This document shows, piece after piece, positions 21,766 to 43,705 of a stretch of 64,000 nt of DNA. The notes under the pieces are model-generated. The model searched no databases, was not told where the DNA came from, and saw only the letters and a list, made by a program, of their open reading frames with translations. The DNA is from a virus, in the IMG/VR virus record IMGVR_UViG_3300022744_000001, positions 354,022-418,021 of that record; one strand, written 5' to 3'. Numbering within the stretch: position 1 is the first letter of the stretch; each line of letters starts with the position of its first letter. The position numbers were made by a program, and so were the translations under genes.

Positions 21766-22083
21766 TCACTTCTTCTTGGAGTCGTGAACCTGGCCGACTT
21801 CCACCTTCAACGCGCGGAAGAAACGCGCCTTGAGCTTCTTGCCCTCGGGCTTCGCCGCGATGGTGATGGAGGCACCGGTCAGAGGGTTGCGACCCTGACG
21901 CTCCGGACGCTTGGGCGTCTTGGCCACCGTGATCTTCACGACGCCGGGGAACGCGAAGACCTTGTTCTTCTTCAGCTCGCGCACGGCCACGTCCTTCAGA
22001 GCATCCACCACGAGACGCACCTGGGTACGGTTGAGGTCCGGCACGCGCTTCGAGATTTCCTTCACCATTTCAGTCTTGTTCAT
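21766..22083 (-). CDS. hup: HU/IHF-family DNA-binding protein
   Basis: MNKTEMVKEIS...FAFPGVVKI...RQGRNPLTGASITIAAKP; true start at MNKT (22083). Confidence 0.9.
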   Translation of the reverse strand: MNKTEMVKEISKRVPDLNRTQVRLVVDALKDVAVRELKKNKVFAFPGVVKITVAKTPKRPERQGRNPLTGASITIAAKPEGKKLKARFFRALKVEVGQVHDSKKK

Positions 22084-22183
22084 TTTGGGTTCCTTCCGAT
22101 CTGGTTCATCTCGGGGGGTCTGGCACCACTTGTGTCGCTGGTACCTTATCCCCGTATGTCTAGGGGTTTGTATAAAAGGAAAA

Positions 22184-22453
22184 TCACTCCCCGGAATCCC
22201 AGGGTGTGATTTCAATGCTGGACACCGGGACGAGTTCTGCTTCCTCGTCACAATAGGCTTCGATGGGCGGAAGGTCATCCGCACTCATCGGGTCCTGCAA
22301 CACGGGGGTTTGCAGTTCTTCTTCGAACGCGCCCTCACCGTCTCGCTGAGTTTCGACCAAATTCAGATCTGTAAGCGTGGCAATCGATACCGCACCCTTC
22401 TGGTACATATCAAAGAGTGCAGAGTCCTTGGCGCCTTTGTCCGAAGCAGTCAT
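22184..22453 (-). CDS. Small acidic protein containing a portal-like peptide
   Basis: 89 aa; ALFDMYQKGAVSI matches portal ALFNLYQKGSVSI; follows the capsid terminator. Confidence 0.6.
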   Translation of the reverse strand: MTASDKGAKDSALFDMYQKGAVSIATLTDLNLVETQRDGEGAFEEELQTPVLQDPMSADDLPPIEAYCDEEAELVPVSSIEITPWDSGE

Positions 22454-22471
22454 TGGAAGCTAGGTACACCG

Positions 22472-22510
22472 AAAAACAAAAGGGCCGCTCGGTTTTCCCG
22501 AGCAGCCCTT
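22472..22510 (-). terminator. Rho-independent terminator after the major capsid gene
   Basis: AAGGGCTGCTCGG-GAAAA-CCGAGCGGCCCTT then TTGTTTTT. Confidence 0.85.
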
Positions 22511-22530
22511 CAAGTACCTACGCTGTCCGG

Positions 22531-23403
22531 TCAGACGCGCGTGACGATCAAGCGCGTGAGGCCGCGGGGGTTGAACGCCCCGATGCCCACGTTCTCGAAG
22601 CACGAGAATCCGATCGTACGAGCCTTGGGGTCGTCCGCCGAGAGCACGGTGAGTTCCGTACGGACGGGGAAGCGACCGAAGTTCTCGGGCTCGCAGCACA
22701 CGTAGATGAAGCCCGCAGGTACCAAGCGGCTCGTGATGATCTGGGCGCCCCAAAGGGTTGCCTGGAGACCAGTCTTGAGCAACACGGCCTGAGACTCGAT
22801 GTCCAAGATGTCACGGCCGAACTTGCGAATATCCGCGTAGTCCGTGGCGTTCATGTAGATACGAGCCACGCGCAAGTCGTGACGCTCGATTTCCGCGAAC
22901 GCATCCGCAAGCACCGAGGGGCTGACCGGGGCCACGACGTTGATGTCGGGGTTGGTCTGACCGGCGAGGGTGTCGAAACCCGAGACAGCGATGCTGTCCA
23001 GGATGGCGAACACGCGCTCGTCTTCCGCCGCCTGAATCTGGGCCTTCGCCAGGTCCTGAGCACGCTCGATGAGGTCGAAGCGGCGCTCCTTGATCTGGGT
23101 GAGGGGGATTTCAGGGTTCGAGGCGATCTCGAACAAGGGGAAGATCACGCGGCGAGGCTTCTGGATGGCGAGGATGTTTTCACCCTCTTCACCCACCACG
23201 TACGCCGTGACATCCGGATCCTTGTCGTAGATCGGCAGGGCACCATCAGGGAGCTGCTCCACGAGGAAGGTCTTACGACCCACCGCCGTGTAGTCGCGCC
23301 GAGAACGGAGCGGCTGAATCATCGAAGCAGCGAGCTTCGCGCGACCGGCAGCGGTCTTGATGTACTCGCTGATGATTTGCTGTTTGACTTCGTTGCTAAC
23401 CAT
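22531..23403 (-). CDS. Major capsid protein (HK97 fold)
   Basis: Gene order protease-scaffold-decoration-MCP-terminator; motifs VGRKTFLVEQLPDG, PLFEIASNPEI, AAEDERVF, IYMNATDYADIRK, ENVGIGAFNPRGL; highly biased codons. Confidence 0.85.
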   Translation of the reverse strand: MVSNEVKQQIISEYIKTAAGRAKLAASMIQPLRSRRDYTAVGRKTFLVEQLPDGALPIYDKDPDVTAYVVGEEGENILAIQKPRRVIFPLFEIASNPEIPLTQIKERRFDLIERAQDLAKAQIQAAEDERVFAILDSIAVSGFDTLAGQTNPDINVVAPVSPSVLADAFAEIERHDLRVARIYMNATDYADIRKFGRDILDIESQAVLLKTGLQATLWGAQIITSRLVPAGFIYVCCEPENFGRFPVRTELTVLSADDPKARTIGFSCFENVGIGAFNPRGLTRLIVTRV

Positions 23404-27892: not shown

Positions 27893-30520
27893 TCAAGGGG
27901 CGAGGGGGCGACCGGTCGTGGACTTGCCCGTCTGGACGGCCTGGCTCTGGTCGTCCGCGAACTGGCTCATGTAGCCCTCGTCCGAGTCGGTCTGGAGAGG
28001 AGCCATGGGGGCGTTGAACGTACCCATGTACTTCTCATCCGAGTCCTGCTGAAGGACGTGGGCCTGCTTGAGGACGTGGGCCTGACGCTTCTGCAAGGAA
28101 TCCGGGCCGAAAGCCGCCACTTCGACCTCATCCGCCGTACGGTCAAGACCGTTCACAAGATTCTTGGCAACCTCGAAAGGCATGCCCCAGTTCTTGTGCT
28201 CGGCCTGGATGACCTCGGCCATCTTGTCGAGACGGGAGAGAATACGGTTGGCGTCTTCCTTTGCGAACTTGGTGGTCATGTTTCCCTCTGCGTGCTCAGT
28301 GGAGACTTTCCGGGTCTCACCGTTGTTGGACCCGTCTAAGCGGGGCATCTGCCAACGATCGAAAGGATAAGAAGAATAGGAAGCCTGTTTGGCCACCCCC
28401 AGGAGCTTGTCCCGCTTCTCCCTAACCTCACTCTCATTAGGGGCTGGACGAACAAGACCATATTGAGGCGGTTTGCGCGGGGGGAGTGGGGCGACCGGAG
28501 GTTTACCCTTCTGGTTCTTTTCCCATGCTTTCTTAGACCTTTCGTACCAATCAAGAAGCCGTTCGTAGTCCTTTTGCTTCTTGTCGTACTCGTCCGCTTC
28601 CATGCGAGCGAGATGCCATGAAAGAGCCTTTGCTTTTTCAGGGTTCATACTCGAAACAGCATGTCGAACCCGTACCCGGAAAACCGTCGCTGGGTCCTCA
28701 AGCCCTGCTGCAACATCCTTCGGGTACTTGTCGGACTGCTTCTCGAAAAACGATTGAGCACTCTTGATTTTTGCGTAGATCTCTCGAGGAGAGTCTGCGT
28801 CAGTGATACGGTCAGGCGAATCCGATTGCAGGTACCTGTGCAGCATCGCCCGGTAGTCCTCCCCTTGAAAGGAAGCGACCGCGAGCATCTTAGCCGCAGG
28901 GTCTTTAATTTGATGGAGTGCCTTCGACCGATCCCCAGACGAAGTCACCTGCGGGGTTGACCGAGAAGAGGTACCGAATCGTTCGTTCTCCTCTCCTTCG
29001 GGCTCAGGCTCAGCAGAAGCTTGCACGAACAGGTCACGGGATTTCTCCTGTGCTTTCCTCATGCGCTCTTCGGGGTTATCCCCACTCGTGGACATCATGA
29101 AATCCACTACGCGAGCCGCGAGCTTCGGCGGAGTACCCTCGGTCTGGATGGCCTTGATCGCCTGCGAACGAACCGCAAGACGAGCCGCAACCACCCCCAT
29201 CCGGTGCTTCTGTACTTCCTCAGCCTGGTGCTCAGGAGACAGCTCCGAGAGGGGCACCTCTTTACCGGCAACGGTTACCTTCTCCGGAGGTTCAATCTTC
29301 TCGGGATCGAGAGACCAATCCTTCGATTTGGCAATCTCTTTAGCGGCATCTGCGGCCGTCATCGACCCCACTTTGAGATCGTGGTAGTTGCTGATCAGCT
29401 CGTTGATGTCGTCCGGGTGCATGGTGATGAATTTCGCCGCCATGTTTGGCGGGAAAGTGTCAATCACCAACTGCCGAGCCTCAAACAACTCCTCCCTGGA
29501 CGGGACTCGCCGCACAGGCTCCTTGGGTTCCTCCCCCTTGGGCTTCTTTTCGGCCTTGGGCTTCTTTTCTGGTTTCTGCCCCTTGGGCTCCTCTTCGGCC
29601 TGCTCTGGCTTAGCCTCGGACCCAGACTCTGGGGTTTCGGGCTTGGCTTCGGGCTTGGCTTCGGGGGCCCCCTGAGCTGGGGCTGGGGATTCAGGCTTGA
29701 CCTCTGCGGCCGGAGCCTCTGGGCTCTTCGCTGGAGGGGCCTTGGGCTTTTTCGCAGGCGCCGCGGGCTCCTGCTTGGTCAAGACCTTGGTTAGGTCCGA
29801 GATGATCTTCTGGACGTTCGGCGGCGGGAGGGTCTTTGCATCCCCCTTTGGCTCTGGCGCCGTAGGCCCCTCGGGGCCTGCCTTGGCCGCAGGCTCTTCT
29901 ACAGGGGCCGCCACAGGGGCTTCCTTCTTGGGAGCCTTCTTGGGCTTCTCCTTGGGCCTAGAAAAGACCTCCTGGGCCAACTCTTTCAAGTCCCCCAGAG
30001 TCTTCACGCTGGCGGGCAGGTCCTTCTCGAAAACAGAAGCCGGGTAGGCCGGGTTGCCTTCCGCAATCCCGCCTGTGTCCGAGGTTGGGTCGAGCAGCTT
30101 CTTGAGGCGAGACTCGAGAGCCGGATCGTTCTTGATCCGCCCCGCAAAATCCCCTGCCTCCTGCTCCCACTTGCTGTTGGGCTTGTAGACCTCGTACTCG
30201 CCCCCACGCTCCTTAAGCGTGTCCTTCGACACGTCAACGATCTTGCCGTCTTCCTTGCGGCGGACCTTGACCTTGTCGGCCTCCTGGTGATTACGAGCAA
30301 TACGAGCCAGATTGACTGACCCGCCGACGTTCTTGCGGTTCAAGGACAGGTCGGGATCCCGCTTGACGTCCTCGTCATGAAGGTCGGGATCCCGATCAGT
30401 GTCCATCCGCTCACGACGACGGTCATGCCGCGGCGGCTTCTTTTTGGGGAGAGGGCGAACAAGGCGCTCGGCCTCCTCGTCCTCCCGCTCCCCAAGGCTC
30501 TTGGTACCCAGAACGTCCAT
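27893..30520 (-). CDS. Large putative internal head protein (P/A/E/K-rich linker)
   Basis: 875 aa between portal and protease; possible nested in-frame C-terminal gene from 28279. Confidence 0.65.
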   Translation of the reverse strand: MDVLGTKSLGEREDEEAERLVRPLPKKKPPRHDRRRERMDTDRDPDLHDEDVKRDPDLSLNRKNVGGSVNLARIARNHQEADKVKVRRKEDGKIVDVSKDTLKERGGEYEVYKPNSKWEQEAGDFAGRIKNDPALESRLKKLLDPTSDTGGIAEGNPAYPASVFEKDLPASVKTLGDLKELAQEVFSRPKEKPKKAPKKEAPVAAPVEEPAAKAGPEGPTAPEPKGDAKTLPPPNVQKIISDLTKVLTKQEPAAPAKKPKAPPAKSPEAPAAEVKPESPAPAQGAPEAKPEAKPETPESGSEAKPEQAEEEPKGQKPEKKPKAEKKPKGEEPKEPVRRVPSREELFEARQLVIDTFPPNMAAKFITMHPDDINELISNYHDLKVGSMTAADAAKEIAKSKDWSLDPEKIEPPEKVTVAGKEVPLSELSPEHQAEEVQKHRMGVVAARLAVRSQAIKAIQTEGTPPKLAARVVDFMMSTSGDNPEERMRKAQEKSRDLFVQASAEPEPEGEENERFGTSSRSTPQVTSSGDRSKALHQIKDPAAKMLAVASFQGEDYRAMLHRYLQSDSPDRITDADSPREIYAKIKSAQSFFEKQSDKYPKDVAAGLEDPATVFRVRVRHAVSSMNPEKAKALSWHLARMEADEYDKKQKDYERLLDWYERSKKAWEKNQKGKPPVAPLPPRKPPQYGLVRPAPNESEVREKRDKLLGVAKQASYSSYPFDRWQMPRLDGSNNGETRKVSTEHAEGNMTTKFAKEDANRILSRLDKMAEVIQAEHKNWGMPFEVAKNLVNGLDRTADEVEVAAFGPDSLQKRQAHVLKQAHVLQQDSDEKYMGTFNAPMAPLQTDSDEGYMSQFADDQSQAVQTGKSTTGRPLAP

Positions 30521-30544: not shown

Positions 30545-32356
30545 TTAGAAGCGGCTGTCCTCTTCCTCCGCAGGAGCGTCCTTCTTGACATCCAACCGAA
30601 GGTATTTGGCCAACTTGTCCGTGACGTTGGTCTTTTCAGCGAGCATTCGACCAACCTCGCCGTAAACCGCACGCACAACCTCGTTGAAGGTGGCGTCGTT
30701 CACCGTGAACATATCGCGCTCAATCTTCTCCTTGGTGTCCGCCGGATCGATGTTGAACATCTCGAGGATGAGGTCGATGGATACCGACCCCTTCTGGTAC
30801 AAGTTGAAGAGGGCGTCGTAGGTGTCCTGGCTGTCACGCAACGCCAAACGCGTGAAACTCAGCGTTGGGTAAAGGACAACTTCCTGGCCCCACTCGTCGA
30901 TCTCCACGAAGCCCTTACGACGAGCGATAGGCTTGAAGAGAGACTCTTCGACGTATTCCTGGATAATCTCCCGGAACAAGAGGTACCTAGTGTTGATGAC
31001 CTCGAGCTTCACGCGGTCGCCCGCGAAAGTGCTCTCTCCGTTGAGCAGAGACTCGGTAACCCCAAGACCTGCGTAGAGCTGCTTGTCCGTGATTTCGTAC
31101 TCGGTGGACAGGTCCAAAAGGCGGTCTCGAGACCCAATCTCCTCCCAATGCACCTCGTAGTTGGTGACGATCGAGTAGTCGGGGTCTACCAACGCCAGGT
31201 CTACCTGCTCGCGCAAGTCATCTGTGTCAACGTCACTGAGGTTCTCGCCCCAAACCACTCGCTTTGGAGTCATCGCGCGGCTGGCGATGAGCGTCTGGGC
31301 CTGACGAAGTTTCTCGCGGTAGTAGAGCGTGCGGAGGCACCGGTCGAGAAGGCTCGCCCCCAGCTCCTCTCCCGCATTTCGACGGGCCGCCAGGTGGTAA
31401 CAGAAGGAGCCTTCATCCGGGTCGGTACCGAGCGGGATGAGCTTGCCCGACTCGATGTACTCCCGAACCTCTTCGGGCATCTCCTCAACCATCTCCTCAG
31501 CCACTTCGTCGCCCGACTTGGCCCGCTCCACCAGTGCACGATCCCGGTCGCTCGGGATGAGTTCAATGCGAACTTTGTCAGTGAAGCTGAACGTAGTGAG
31601 CTTCACCTGGTCGATAGGCAGGATGACCAACCGCGACCACCCCTGGTAGTGCTTCTGGTAGTAGGCCAGCTCCCGATCTTCTCGGTCTGGGCGCTCCTCG
31701 AACACTTCTTCTTCGACCTCTTCTCCAGTGCCGTCTTCCTTGAGCACGGACTTTTTGAGGCGTTGGACGTCATGACCCACGTCGTCAGGCACGTTGACGG
31801 TGGAGTCCTCGGCAAAGATGAACACGTTGCCATCAAGCCAGTAATGGCGGGTAGCCGTGATCAACCTCTGGAAAAGCTTGAGACGCCCGCACATCTGCTT
31901 GAAGAACGACAGGATGTAGTTGGCGTAATGGTCAGCGTCCTTGAACCCCTTGGGTACCTGGGTCGGTTTGGGTTTAGCCAACCGCACCTTCGACATCGGA
32001 AGCTCCGTGTGCAGGTCGATAGCCTGCGCCACGATAGGGTCCGTGTGGTAGAAGTGGCGATAAATCTCGCGCTTTTCACGGAGCGACTGTGGAAGCTCGA
32101 GGAAATCAGTAGAGAGCTGAGGTGAGAAGAACGGACTGGTGCCGGATTGAACCGTGTTGGCCCCGGAGATATTGTCCATCGGGAACCCGCCGGTGCCGAT
32201 GTTGGCCTTGAAAACCCGGCGAGCCACCTTCTCCTTGTCAGTCAGGTTGGTGAGTTTGCCTTTGGAAGCGTAGGGCCTCTGCGGGTACCTGCCAGGTACC
32301 GTGTTCGCCAAAACGCTTCCAGCCATGCTTACGTTTGTATAGCCCTTCGGCATCAC
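30545..32356 (-). CDS. Portal protein
   Basis: RHFYHTDPIVAQAIDLHT, YWLDGNVF, GASLLDRC, KQLYAGLGVTESLLNGE; position between terminase and protease. Confidence 0.85.
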   Translation of the reverse strand: MMPKGYTNVSMAGSVLANTVPGRYPQRPYASKGKLTNLTDKEKVARRVFKANIGTGGFPMDNISGANTVQSGTSPFFSPQLSTDFLELPQSLREKREIYRHFYHTDPIVAQAIDLHTELPMSKVRLAKPKPTQVPKGFKDADHYANYILSFFKQMCGRLKLFQRLITATRHYWLDGNVFIFAEDSTVNVPDDVGHDVQRLKKSVLKEDGTGEEVEEEVFEERPDREDRELAYYQKHYQGWSRLVILPIDQVKLTTFSFTDKVRIELIPSDRDRALVERAKSGDEVAEEMVEEMPEEVREYIESGKLIPLGTDPDEGSFCYHLAARRNAGEELGASLLDRCLRTLYYREKLRQAQTLIASRAMTPKRVVWGENLSDVDTDDLREQVDLALVDPDYSIVTNYEVHWEEIGSRDRLLDLSTEYEITDKQLYAGLGVTESLLNGESTFAGDRVKLEVINTRYLLFREIIQEYVEESLFKPIARRKGFVEIDEWGQEVVLYPTLSFTRLALRDSQDTYDALFNLYQKGSVSIDLILEMFNIDPADTKEKIERDMFTVNDATFNEVVRAVYGEVGRMLAEKTNVTDKLAKYLRLDVKKDAPAEEEDSRF

Positions 32357-32814
32357 TCATCCCCGTAAAGGTCATTCAGGTCGGAAACTGGGGCCCCTGA
32401 CTCAAGCAGGTCCTCAATTACCAATTCCTGATTAGAAGATCCGAAAATGCCATAGGAGTCTCGATTCGAACGGGCTGTCTCACGCTGGAGCCTGGCCAAA
32501 GCCCTCCGCTTCTCCCACTCCTCTTGCCGTTCTTTTCGCTCTTGTTCCTCTTGAGCTGCCCGCTTGCTAACAGCAAGAATGCGGTCAACGGCTGCTGTGC
32601 GCTTGGCCCCTTGGGTAACCGACCCAGCAAACCGTCGATTGGCATTGGAGATGGACACGAAGATGCTTGATTGGTCCGACGGGCTCCGGCGAACCTTGAG
32701 ATAGAGAGCACCGCACACCTGGTTAAGCTTCTCCGCCGTGGTCACCATCTCCTTCCGGAGTCGGATCGCTTCGGTGAAAAGCTCCTCGGTATCCATGGAG
32801 TCAATAGGTTTCAT
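32353..32814 (-). CDS. Hypothetical coiled-coil protein
   Basis: 4-nt overlaps with both neighbours. Confidence 0.55.
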   Translation of the reverse strand: MKPIDSMDTEELFTEAIRLRKEMVTTAEKLNQVCGALYLKVRRSPSDQSSIFVSISNANRRFAGSVTQGAKRTAAVDRILAVSKRAAQEEQERKERQEEWEKRRALARLQRETARSNRDSYGIFGSSNQELVIEDLLESGAPVSDLNDLYGDE

Positions 32815-33338
32815 AGAAAGGTCTGCACTCCGAGGAAATGGTTGTTGCTCGTTTTGGGTACCTGAACAACCACACCGGGACTCAATGCTGGGGCCAAGGG
32901 ATCGCCCGCCAAAGTCATTTCATCCTCGTTAGTCCAAAGCCCACGCCGAGAAAAGTACAGGGAGTCTTGGGCACGGTAGACCAAAGACACAAGCGGCCCG
33001 CCCCCAGTACGAGAAGCGTAGGTGTAACGCTCATAACTCGTGGTAGCGAGAATGTTGCTCCCTGTGAGCATCGTGGCGAAGCGGTAATAGGGCTGGTTGC
33101 GAGTCATGGCCGCATAGTCGTCGCCAGCCTCGTTCGACCCCCAAATCAGAACCCCCCCGAACAACCCATTGGAGAACGTCACAACCCGTTCGTCCACTGA
33201 CGACCCCGACCACTGCACCCCTTGTCCTCCAGGCCACCCAAAGGAAACCATGTTCTGCGAGACGACCACCGTTTGGGAGTCCCCCTTATGAAACACGACG
33301 CAGTCTCTGGATCGCAGAATCTCAGGCATGGGACTCAC
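32811..33338 (-). CDS. Decoration-like paralog 3 of 3
   Basis: RDC.V..KGD, GW.GGQGV.W, GSNE..D, YERYTYASR, LYFS.RG.WT.EDE. Confidence 0.7.
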   Translation of the reverse strand: MSPMPEILRSRDCVVFHKGDSQTVVVSQNMVSFGWPGGQGVQWSGSSVDERVVTFSNGLFGGVLIWGSNEAGDDYAAMTRNQPYYRFATMLTGSNILATTSYERYTYASRTGGGPLVSLVYRAQDSLYFSRRGLWTNEDEMTLAGDPLAPALSPGVVVQVPKTSNNHFLGVQTFL

Positions 33339-33853
33339 ATAGTGGTTTGAAGCGTCAGGTAGTAGTTGTTATCTGCGGATGGCACTTGAACCGTGATTCC
33401 ACAGAACGAGGTGTTTGACCCACGAGGGTCAGAGGAGAGGGTCCACTCATCCTCCTTGGTCCAATACCCTCGCAGCGAAAACCTCAACCGGTCGGTAGGG
33501 CTGTAAACGATCGGTACCAAGGGCCCCGCTTGCCGAGAGGCATAGGTATAGCGCTCAAACGTCCTGGTGGAGACCACCCAACCACCGAAGGCCGCCACAG
33601 CGTACCCATACGCTACCTGCTGGCCAGTGACAGCTGTAAGTTGGTCAGAGGGCTCGTTAGACCCGTAGAAGATGAAGGCACCAAACGGCCCATCCGAGTA
33701 GGACATGAGGAACTCGTCCTTCGTCGAGTCCACCCACTGGACGCCCTGCCCTCCCTGCCAGCCGCCAACAACCATGGTCGCGGTAATGGCCACTGGGAAG
33801 GTGTCCCCCTTTTTCAGGATGTAACAGTCTCGCTCTCGAGGGAACTGGGTCAT
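33335..33853 (-). CDS. Decoration-like paralog 2 of 3
   Basis: Start MTQFPRERDC (TGATG coupling); same motifs as the other two paralogs. Confidence 0.7.
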   Translation of the reverse strand: MTQFPRERDCYILKKGDTFPVAITATMVVGGWQGGQGVQWVDSTKDEFLMSYSDGPFGAFIFYGSNEPSDQLTAVTGQQVAYGYAVAAFGGWVVSTRTFERYTYASRQAGPLVPIVYSPTDRLRFSLRGYWTKEDEWTLSSDPRGSNTSFCGITVQVPSADNNYYLTLQTTM

Positions 33854-34374
33854 CAGATGGCCACCTGCACACCGAGGTAATACCCCGTCAATGAACTTGG
33901 GATTTGGGAAACGTACCCAATGACCCAAGGATTCGGGGCTCGAGGGTCAGAGGAGAGGGTCCACTCGTCTTCCTTGGTCCAGTACCCCCGCAGCGAAAAA
34001 TACAGCCGATCGCTCGGGTTGTAGGTGAGAGGTACCAAAGGCCCGCCGCCAACCCTAGAAGCATAGGTATGACGTTCGTATGTCGTGGTAGAAAGCTGCC
34101 AGCCGCCAAAGCACAAAGTAGCAAAGCGGTAGTAGGGCTGACTGCGAGTCTGAGCGGTGAACTGATCCGATGTCTCATCGGAACCCCAGATCATGAACCC
34201 ACAAGGGTTCCCATCCGTGGGCGCAATCCTAAACTCATCCTTGGTAGAGTTCTCCCAAGAAACCCCCTGCCCACCCTTCCACCCTGTCAAAGCCAACGTC
34301 TCGCCCACGACCACAGGTAACGTGTCGCCCTTCACGAGCACAACGCAGTCACGAGTACGTGGCTGTTCCGGCAT
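33853..34374 (-). CDS. Decoration-like paralog 1 of 3
   Basis: Same motifs; DNA identity with paralog 2 (cgagggtcagaggagagggtccactc). Confidence 0.7.
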   Translation of the reverse strand: MPEQPRTRDCVVLVKGDTLPVVVGETLALTGWKGGQGVSWENSTKDEFRIAPTDGNPCGFMIWGSDETSDQFTAQTRSQPYYRFATLCFGGWQLSTTTYERHTYASRVGGGPLVPLTYNPSDRLYFSLRGYWTKEDEWTLSSDPRAPNPWVIGYVSQIPSSLTGYYLGVQVAI

Positions 34375-37392: not shown

Positions 37393-37971
37393 CTACCTCA
37401 AGGCATCCTGGGCTCGCTCCTCCCACCCCTCCATAGCAGTCGCGAACCGATTGAAGAACAGTTCCATTACTTCAGGAGTCATGACCTCCTGGGCAACCTC
37501 TTTGATAACCTCGACCCACAAAGCGAAGACCCTCTGCATCTTCTCGCTGCTGAGGTTGATCGAATGCTGGTCAAGCTCTCGAATCTTGAGTTCGATATCC
37601 GCAATGCGGCGAAGCGCCTCGATGCGTCGAGCTGAAATCGTGGTTGGGTCCTTGGCCCGACCAGATTCCGCCTCCAAACGGTCGAAATGCAGGCTGGCAG
37701 CCTCTCGAGCGATCTCCCGCTTGATCTCCCGAAGGACCGCAAAAGCGTCCCCTCCATGGTTGACCACTTTGACGAGCGGGTCGTCGTCGATGAAGTTGTT
37801 TCGACGTTCAACCCGAAGCGCTTGGTACTGCGCTTCCGCAGTCGCGGACTTCGGAGTCAAAGGCCCAGACCGAGCTGGGACCACACTGCGCGGGGTAGGT
37901 TGAAACCGGTTCAACGCTCGAGCACCACCCACAACAATCGCTTCACTCTTTTCATCTTCATCTTGGGGCAT
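37393..37971 (-). CDS. Putative terminase small subunit
   Basis: Helical 192-aa gene directly upstream of terL; position only. Confidence 0.45.
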   Translation of the reverse strand: MPQDEDEKSEAIVVGGARALNRFQPTPRSVVPARSGPLTPKSATAEAQYQALRVERRNNFIDDDPLVKVVNHGGDAFAVLREIKREIAREAASLHFDRLEAESGRAKDPTTISARRIEALRRIADIELKIRELDQHSINLSSEKMQRVFALWVEVIKEVAQEVMTPEVMELFFNRFATAMEGWEERAQDALR

Positions 37972-43060: not shown

Positions 43061-43705
43061 CTAGAACAGGCCGTCTCCCCCGCGGCTTGCCCACTGCGGC
43101 AACTTGACCTCTCGGAGGATGTTGAATTTCTTCGATGCAATCGCGGAAAACACACGATGGTACCTCATAAGTGTGTCGTCCTCCCCGGCCTTCTTCTCCA
43201 AAAGCTTTACGGCACCGAAGAACCGGTGCCGTACGCGACCCTGGGTCAACCCCAAACGTGTGGCCACCTCAGACTGGCAAGTGGTCTGCCACATGCCCAC
43301 AAGGATGTTCACGTCGATTTCCCTGAGAGGTACCTTGGGGAGGTCCCGACGCATCTCGTCCTCGGTCACCTGGGGGATGGACAGGAGGAATCGGATGCGC
43401 TGAATGCCGCGGTCAAGGCGATAGGAGATGGCAGCCTGGGTGACCCCGAAGATCTCCGCAATGTCCGCCTGTTTCTTCTTGAGCACGTAGTAGAGATGGA
43501 CGATGTCCGCCTCTCGGTTCGGGATCTTGTCGAGTAGAGGTTTGACTTGGGACTCGTAGTGGAGATGGGAGAGTATCCCGCCCACCTCGTCCTCGGTTAG
43601 CTGCTCCGCATCTGCTTCGTCCAACAACGGCTCAGACGAGGCAAACCGGTTAGCCAACTCTGCCGGGTCTACGGAAATAACATATCCCCCACTCATACTT
43701 CCCAC
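43061..43705 (-). CDS. Tandem sigma-70 region-4-like HTH protein
   Basis: IPNREADIVHLYY..KQADIAEIFGVTQAAISYRL and LREIDVNIL..QSEVATRLGLTQGRVRHRF. Confidence 0.7.
   Translation of the reverse strand: MGSMSGGYVISVDPAELANRFASSEPLLDEADAEQLTEDEVGGILSHLHYESQVKPLLDKIPNREADIVHLYYVLKKKQADIAEIFGVTQAAISYRLDRGIQRIRFLLSIPQVTEDEMRRDLPKVPLREIDVNILVGMWQTTCQSEVATRLGLTQGRVRHRFFGAVKLLEKKAGEDDTLMRYHRVFSAIASKKFNILREVKLPQWASRGGDGLF

Follow-up and report, generated by a model that had tools for sequence, protein, structure and literature searches.

A portal crown-like peptide in a small orphan gene next to the capsid gene of a giant phage

The window analysed here is a stretch of 64,000 nucleotides (64 kb) from a complete phage genome of 447,761 bp, with 59% GC and 55 tRNA calls. 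By capsid, the nearest cultured phages are Tunturi_5 at 47% and Bacillus phage G at 38%. Its HU, portal and protease proteins are singletons at 90% identity, so that it has no close relative; the gene after HU has only 52–58% identity in the nearest contigs. On the minus strand, the head genes run in the order terminase, portal, protease, scaffold and capsid, followed by an 89-aa ORF and an HU-like gene. The portal gene (30545–32356) matches PHROG 16240 (E 3.5e-29) and has Foldseek matches to solved portals. The slot of the ORF is bounded upstream by the major capsid gene (22531–23403) and downstream by the gene for the HU-like DNA-binding protein (21766–22083). Nearby, a single-base variant within the capsid gene is the only one seen.

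Several other observations concern this genome and its relatives. Three tandem paralogues at 32811–34374 of the window show weak profile similarity to the 205-aa gene preceding the capsid gene (E 0.003–0.016). An ARAGORN tRNA call with a CUA anticodon (G000:C1:35713-35804), on the opposite strand to the main tRNA cluster, could be an amber suppressor or a false call. The portal genes of L005, L042, L043, L047 and G028 contain intein-like in-frame insertions of about 390–520 residues near portal residue 340.

The ORF (22184–22453, minus strand) begins with ATG, has been called as a gene where the same phage was assembled publicly, and combines a portal crown-like N-terminus with an acidic, probably unfolded tail. 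Codons 12–24 (22382–22420, minus strand) are a copy of portal residues 515–527 (30776–30814) with 10 of 13 residues identical, as the original prediction had it, and the three replacements (N518D, L519M, S524A) are conservative. The two DNA segments share 30 of 39 nucleotides, including a 13-mer, and six of the nine differences fall at third positions. At their widest, portal profiles align ORF residues ~11–36 (22346–22423, minus strand) with the crown helix-turn-helix, the flanks alone being not significant (p 0.065–0.10). The remainder was predicted to be acidic and unrelated, and this holds: residues 25–89 include 18 D/E versus one K/R and show no similarity to anything in homologue searches. 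In a single-sequence structure model of low confidence, helices span residues 3–18 and 24–33, the same helix-turn-helix as in the portal; the models of the ORF contain no globular fold (pTM 0.11 and 0.20). The ORF has no PHROG or Pfam match, nothing was returned from Atlas or PADLOC, and the portal fold with its wing, stem, clip, crown and ring formation is missing from its 89 residues. A CRISPR spacer, guide or structured RNA was rejected as an explanation of the segment, which has no repeats around it and no Rfam match near threshold.

The predicted position of the ORF, after the capsid terminator and with a GGTGTA motif of its own, was reproduced. A terminator-like hairpin follows the major capsid gene (22479–22511, minus strand) and stands just upstream of GGTGTA (22465–22470, minus strand), a promoter-like motif of the non-virion gene class that precedes the ORF start codon by 11 nt. 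GGTGTA followed by ATG about 8–11 nt on occurs at 270 sites of the genome, 163 of which are outside called genes (17% of the DNA). The arrangement precedes more than 100 ORFs, mostly small or non-virion, and the motif was not found before the portal, protease, scaffold or capsid genes. The spacing of motif and ATG points to a promoter specific to the phage whose transcripts are leaderless. The codon score of the ORF, 0.096 per codon versus a maximum of 0.036 in 2000 base shuffles, is within the range of long genes, and base shuffling gives a probability of 0.023 for a frame that stays open between the ancestral start and stop. The feature is real, and the ORF is probably a genuine gene; judging from its sequence signals it is probably expressed, and the motif would place its transcription with the non-virion genes, not the head operon.

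The slot preceding HU is occupied in relatives by a conserved gene of 134–181 aa behind the same GGTGTA motif, here termed gene X (L014:11148-11552, L005:11118-11558 and about 25 further loci). A slot gene of 139 aa is also listed for ERR12072627. Over 55 nt at promoter and start, the ORF is 78% identical to gene X of L005 and L008. The stop junction is also common: a hairpin overlaps the ORF stop codon (22181–22212, minus strand), and this junction can be aligned both to the gene X end of L005 and to the emptied slot of L001. Between the start region and the stop junction, no homology of the window to gene X of L005 and L008 was found, and the ORF was rejected as a diverged gene X (HMM score -2.3 bits; pairwise p at least 0.24). 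Since the promoter, start and stop context is common with gene X but the interior is not, the ORF is a replacement in a fast-turnover accessory slot. Gene X is present in three of six complete genomes and absent from this one; in L001, the closest contig by capsid, the slot is nearly emptied, and the three closest lineages thus show three slot states (the 89-aa ORF, gene X, nearly empty). By synteny, the ORF evidently replaced a conserved, dispensable gene between capsid and HU, with the ancestral start and stop kept in frame and the GGTGTA motif inherited with the slot. Gene X has no Pfam or PHROG match; modelled by Atlas, it is similar to the ribosome hibernation fold of HPF/YfiA (TM 0.61–0.65), and it is a candidate phage ribosome-binding factor.

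The similarity between the ORF peptide and the portal was evaluated with several scores. In PAM30, a matrix suited to short high-identity matches, its score of 77 was reached in none of 12 and none of 28 whole-proteome shuffles (maximum 76), and the extrapolated expectation is ~0.01–0.02 per genome. The BLOSUM62 score of 55 is ordinary, with 16–38 such pairs per shuffled proteome or about one per window, so that significance is carried by the identity-weighted matrix and by the profile search. In the latter, the ORF ranks second after the portal itself and is the sole non-portal match to the crown (E 0.0013; the next match has 0.16); hhalign gives E 6e-5 and a probability of 65%. With the same crown query, ~7 Mb of related records yielded no chance match of this kind. 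Five of the 10 residues in common use the same codon, versus 5.3 expected from codon usage; the DNA similarity pointed out in the original prediction is therefore real but adds nothing to the protein match. Taken on sequence grounds, the ORF peptide very probably derives from a portal.

The donor motif (portal residues 515–527; 30776–30814, minus strand) spans the end of a helix at 510–522, a glycine turn and the start of a helix at 527–533, which form the first crown hairpin of the predicted structure. The portal model has a mean pLDDT of 59, and its portal fold was confirmed by Foldseek; the segment is assigned to the crown by its position in the modelled C-terminal helical domain. A PDB sequence search returned no portal. 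The copied stretch contains five of the 17 columns invariant across 67 aligned portals (L519, Y520, K522, G523, S524). The ORF retains the Y, K and G of the motif, and L519 and S524 are conservatively replaced. Its D518 is also found in distant portals, and at V525 and S526 it agrees with its own lineage, these being minority states in distant portals (5/48 and 10/48). M519 and A524 occur in no sampled portal, and a pattern search of IMG/VR found no donor portal already carrying either of them. The similarity is concentrated on the invariant motif and is near random beside it. A complex prediction of ORF residues 1–45 with three crown copies scored 0.10 (mark 0.32), which gives no verdict either way.

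No homologue of the ORF was found among 5.8 billion clustered proteins, 1.8 billion representatives, IMG/VR, JGI metagenomes and GenBank phages, where only the same phage was recovered; two weak matches were rejected as repeats in unrelated long proteins. The original prediction had counted absence from relatives against itself. The ORF is indeed absent from all of them, which is not decisive because none is close enough, as the singleton status of HU, portal and protease indicates. The prediction had also read the synonymous differences as protein-level conservation. In simulated neutral decay of a self-copy, at least six third-position changes together with only conservative replacements occurred in at most 0.7% of detectable cases, a joint statistic that was chosen after the data were seen. 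Simple neutral decay of a self-copy is thus disfavoured by the codon pattern, and selection on the peptide is suggested. The portal codons of relatives differ from the ORF at 8–9 of 39 nt, the same as its own portal. With the portal of a co-infecting relative as donor, the synonymous differences need no selection, and only the three conservative-only changes remain (p about 0.15).

The genome contains further dispersed genes that carry fragments of other genes. Outside the window, a 171-aa protein (G000:C1:105633-106148, minus strand) matches the capsid profile at 158–239 (E 3e-30) and belongs to a family common to G003 and G013, and a 187-aa protein (G000:C1:110971-111534, plus strand) carries capsid 68–104 behind a twin-arginine-like leader (E 8e-4). 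Four small copy genes (G000:C1:170064-170390, 82521-82691, 232327-232665 and 169202-169441) have as their sources a 155-aa gene before the terminase (37393–37860), an 875-aa head protein (27893–30520; two copies) and a sigma-like gene (43061–43696). GGTGTA precedes at least three dispersed fragment genes of this genome. In relatives, 20 extra capsid-fragment matches at E<1e-4 were found in 12 records, and several families span genomes. Conserved mosaics of 250–350 aa in L099, L100, L104 and L105 (G002, G003, G004, G013) combine other domains with the capsid N-arm or with permuted pieces of the capsid, and most of them end in an acidic tail of the SRF/TRF type. The motif [ST]R[FY][DE][LMF][ILMV] occurs in 10 proteins of the genome, in nine of them near the C-terminus (0.3 expected), and is not found in the 89-aa ORF. 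Separately, a YDYDFR motif is common to several small proteins of the genome.

A search for second crown copies in relatives recovered the ORF in its own genome and a single further case, in L050. There, a 61-aa ORF right after the portal stop (L050:1274-1459) is a diverged copy of crown residues ~521–577 (E 1e-4); it has no homologues and is a singleton. Of the crown it retains the later helices, the YQKG motif being lost, so that its origin is independent. Other small crown-like proteins were rejected as portal ends on short contigs or, at the two loci inspected, as broken portal frames. On these comparisons, fragment genes are a real feature of the clade, and the 89-aa ORF shows their pattern of a short conserved core-protein motif with an unrelated tail in a small accessory gene. 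Their frequency raises the prior that its portal copy is not noise. We found no paper describing free-standing virion-fragment genes of giant phages as a pattern.

Portals are immune triggers that phages counter (PMC12847820, PMC13728456, bioRxiv 10.64898/2026.01.04.697583). Avs4 contacts the portal at its stem and clip and on a portion of its wing, and SpbK contacts the clip (PMC12847820); Avs sensors recognise extended folds and not short motifs (bioRxiv 10.64898/2026.01.04.697583). The suggestion that the peptide is a decoy for Avs4-type portal sensing does not agree with these contacts, as the peptide maps to the crown, and a 13-residue crown peptide would make a poor Avs4 decoy. It could still titrate a partner that recognises a motif of the unassembled portal; the crown is inside the capsid in the virion (PMC9958956), so that any host contact must come before assembly. 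Our literature search found no crown-sensing system and no portal-fragment decoy.

We propose, with a probability of roughly 40%, that the ORF is a lineage-specific crown mimic competing for a portal-binding partner. The coding interior of gene X was replaced, as the synteny shows, with its promoter, start and stop context left behind; the first 25–35 codons probably came from the first helix-turn-helix of the portal crown, a step with strong support. The product could then act as a soluble competitive mimic that displays the near-invariant crown motif on an unfolded acidic tail, and may occupy a partner of the unassembled portal; the most plausible candidate is a host factor, either a sensor or a protease, distinct from Avs4 and SpbK. 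Two altered invariant residues (L519 and S524) argue against mimicry, as does the small part of the crown that is kept (13 of roughly 100 residues). A wider version, in which giant phages of this clade repeatedly build decoy genes against host pattern recognition from fragments of their most conserved virion proteins and the ORF is a crown decoy against an undescribed host sensor for the invariant crown motif of the unassembled portal, is doubtful at present.

The rival that survives best, although we consider it rather unlikely, is that portal DNA of this phage or of a co-infecting relative was captured by illegitimate recombination, leaving a young or decaying ORF, or one with a function in its tail only, in which the peptide is inert. 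The variation of the slot among the closest lineages and the lack of homologues fit such a passenger origin, a foreign donor could account for the third-position changes, and the conservative-only changes have p about 0.15. It is opposed by the intact frame, start and stop with coding-like codons, by the centring of the similarity on the invariant motif, and by the conservation of related fragment genes between genomes.

It is less probable that the peptide interferes with assembly by binding to portal subunits at their crown, either delaying the phage's own ring or poisoning the portals of co-infecting relatives, whose motif is near-identical. In the YonE dodecamer model (PMC12847820), part of the contacts between subunits comes from the crown, the crown motif is common across the clade, and the second crown mini-gene lies directly behind the L050 portal gene. 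However, the phage's own portal would be hit too, more than 40 related records do without the ORF, and a 13-residue piece would compete against the same helix in cis.

Chance or structural convergence, with a common helix-Gly-turn-helix arising in an unrelated orphan protein, seems a shade more improbable. The BLOSUM62 score of the match recurs at a rate of about one per shuffled window, the flanks are not significant, the codons hold no DNA memory beyond codon usage, and reading very many windows leads to rare coincidences being reported. Against this stand the PAM30 expectation, which covers any pair in the genome and by arithmetic is about a hundredfold lower for pairs with the portal, the lineage states V525 and S526, and the real fragment genes common in the clade. 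That the product is a small, acidic internal protein of the head, which a portal-like docking motif brings into the prohead and the head protease then cleaves, is very improbable: the ORF adjoins the capsid gene, its product is acidic and K-G-A occurs twice within the first 21 residues, but a terminator separates it from the capsid gene, it has the GGTGTA motif that head genes are without, the residues after K-G-A (K, V) are outside the [KR]-x-A-[SAG] pattern of the clade, and relatives have no such ORF.

If functional, the ORF marks a core-virion surface recognised by a host, and a peptide of 13–30 residues would be a cheap bait for its partner. With it, the portal crown joins the capsid as a source of free-standing fragment genes in giant phages. 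As a singleton it is a supporting example, and the conserved capsid-fragment families of the clade are the better test cases.

Among known systems, the closest in concept are EcAvs4 (PDB 8DGF), Avs11, SpbK and the SpbK inhibitor Nip, in which the portal is the trigger and phage countermeasures exist; in contrast to the proposed mimic, Nip acts by blocking the NADase domain and is not described as mimicking a portal. In comparison with portal crowns (T4 gp20, SPbeta YonE residues 415–465, lambda and G20C), ORF residues 12–24 copy the first helix-turn of the crown of their own phage and a helix-turn-helix is predicted in both, whereas the ORF has only 13 to ~30 such residues, no wing, stem or clip, an acidic unfolded tail and no portal formation. 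With the gene X family it has in common the slot, the promoter motif and the homologous start and stop context, but no detectable coding homology. The capsid-fragment genes of the clade differ from the ORF in that it copies crown and not capsid, is without the SRF-type tail and occurs in one genome only; like them, it is a small accessory gene with a core-virion motif, an acidic tail and a non-virion promoter.
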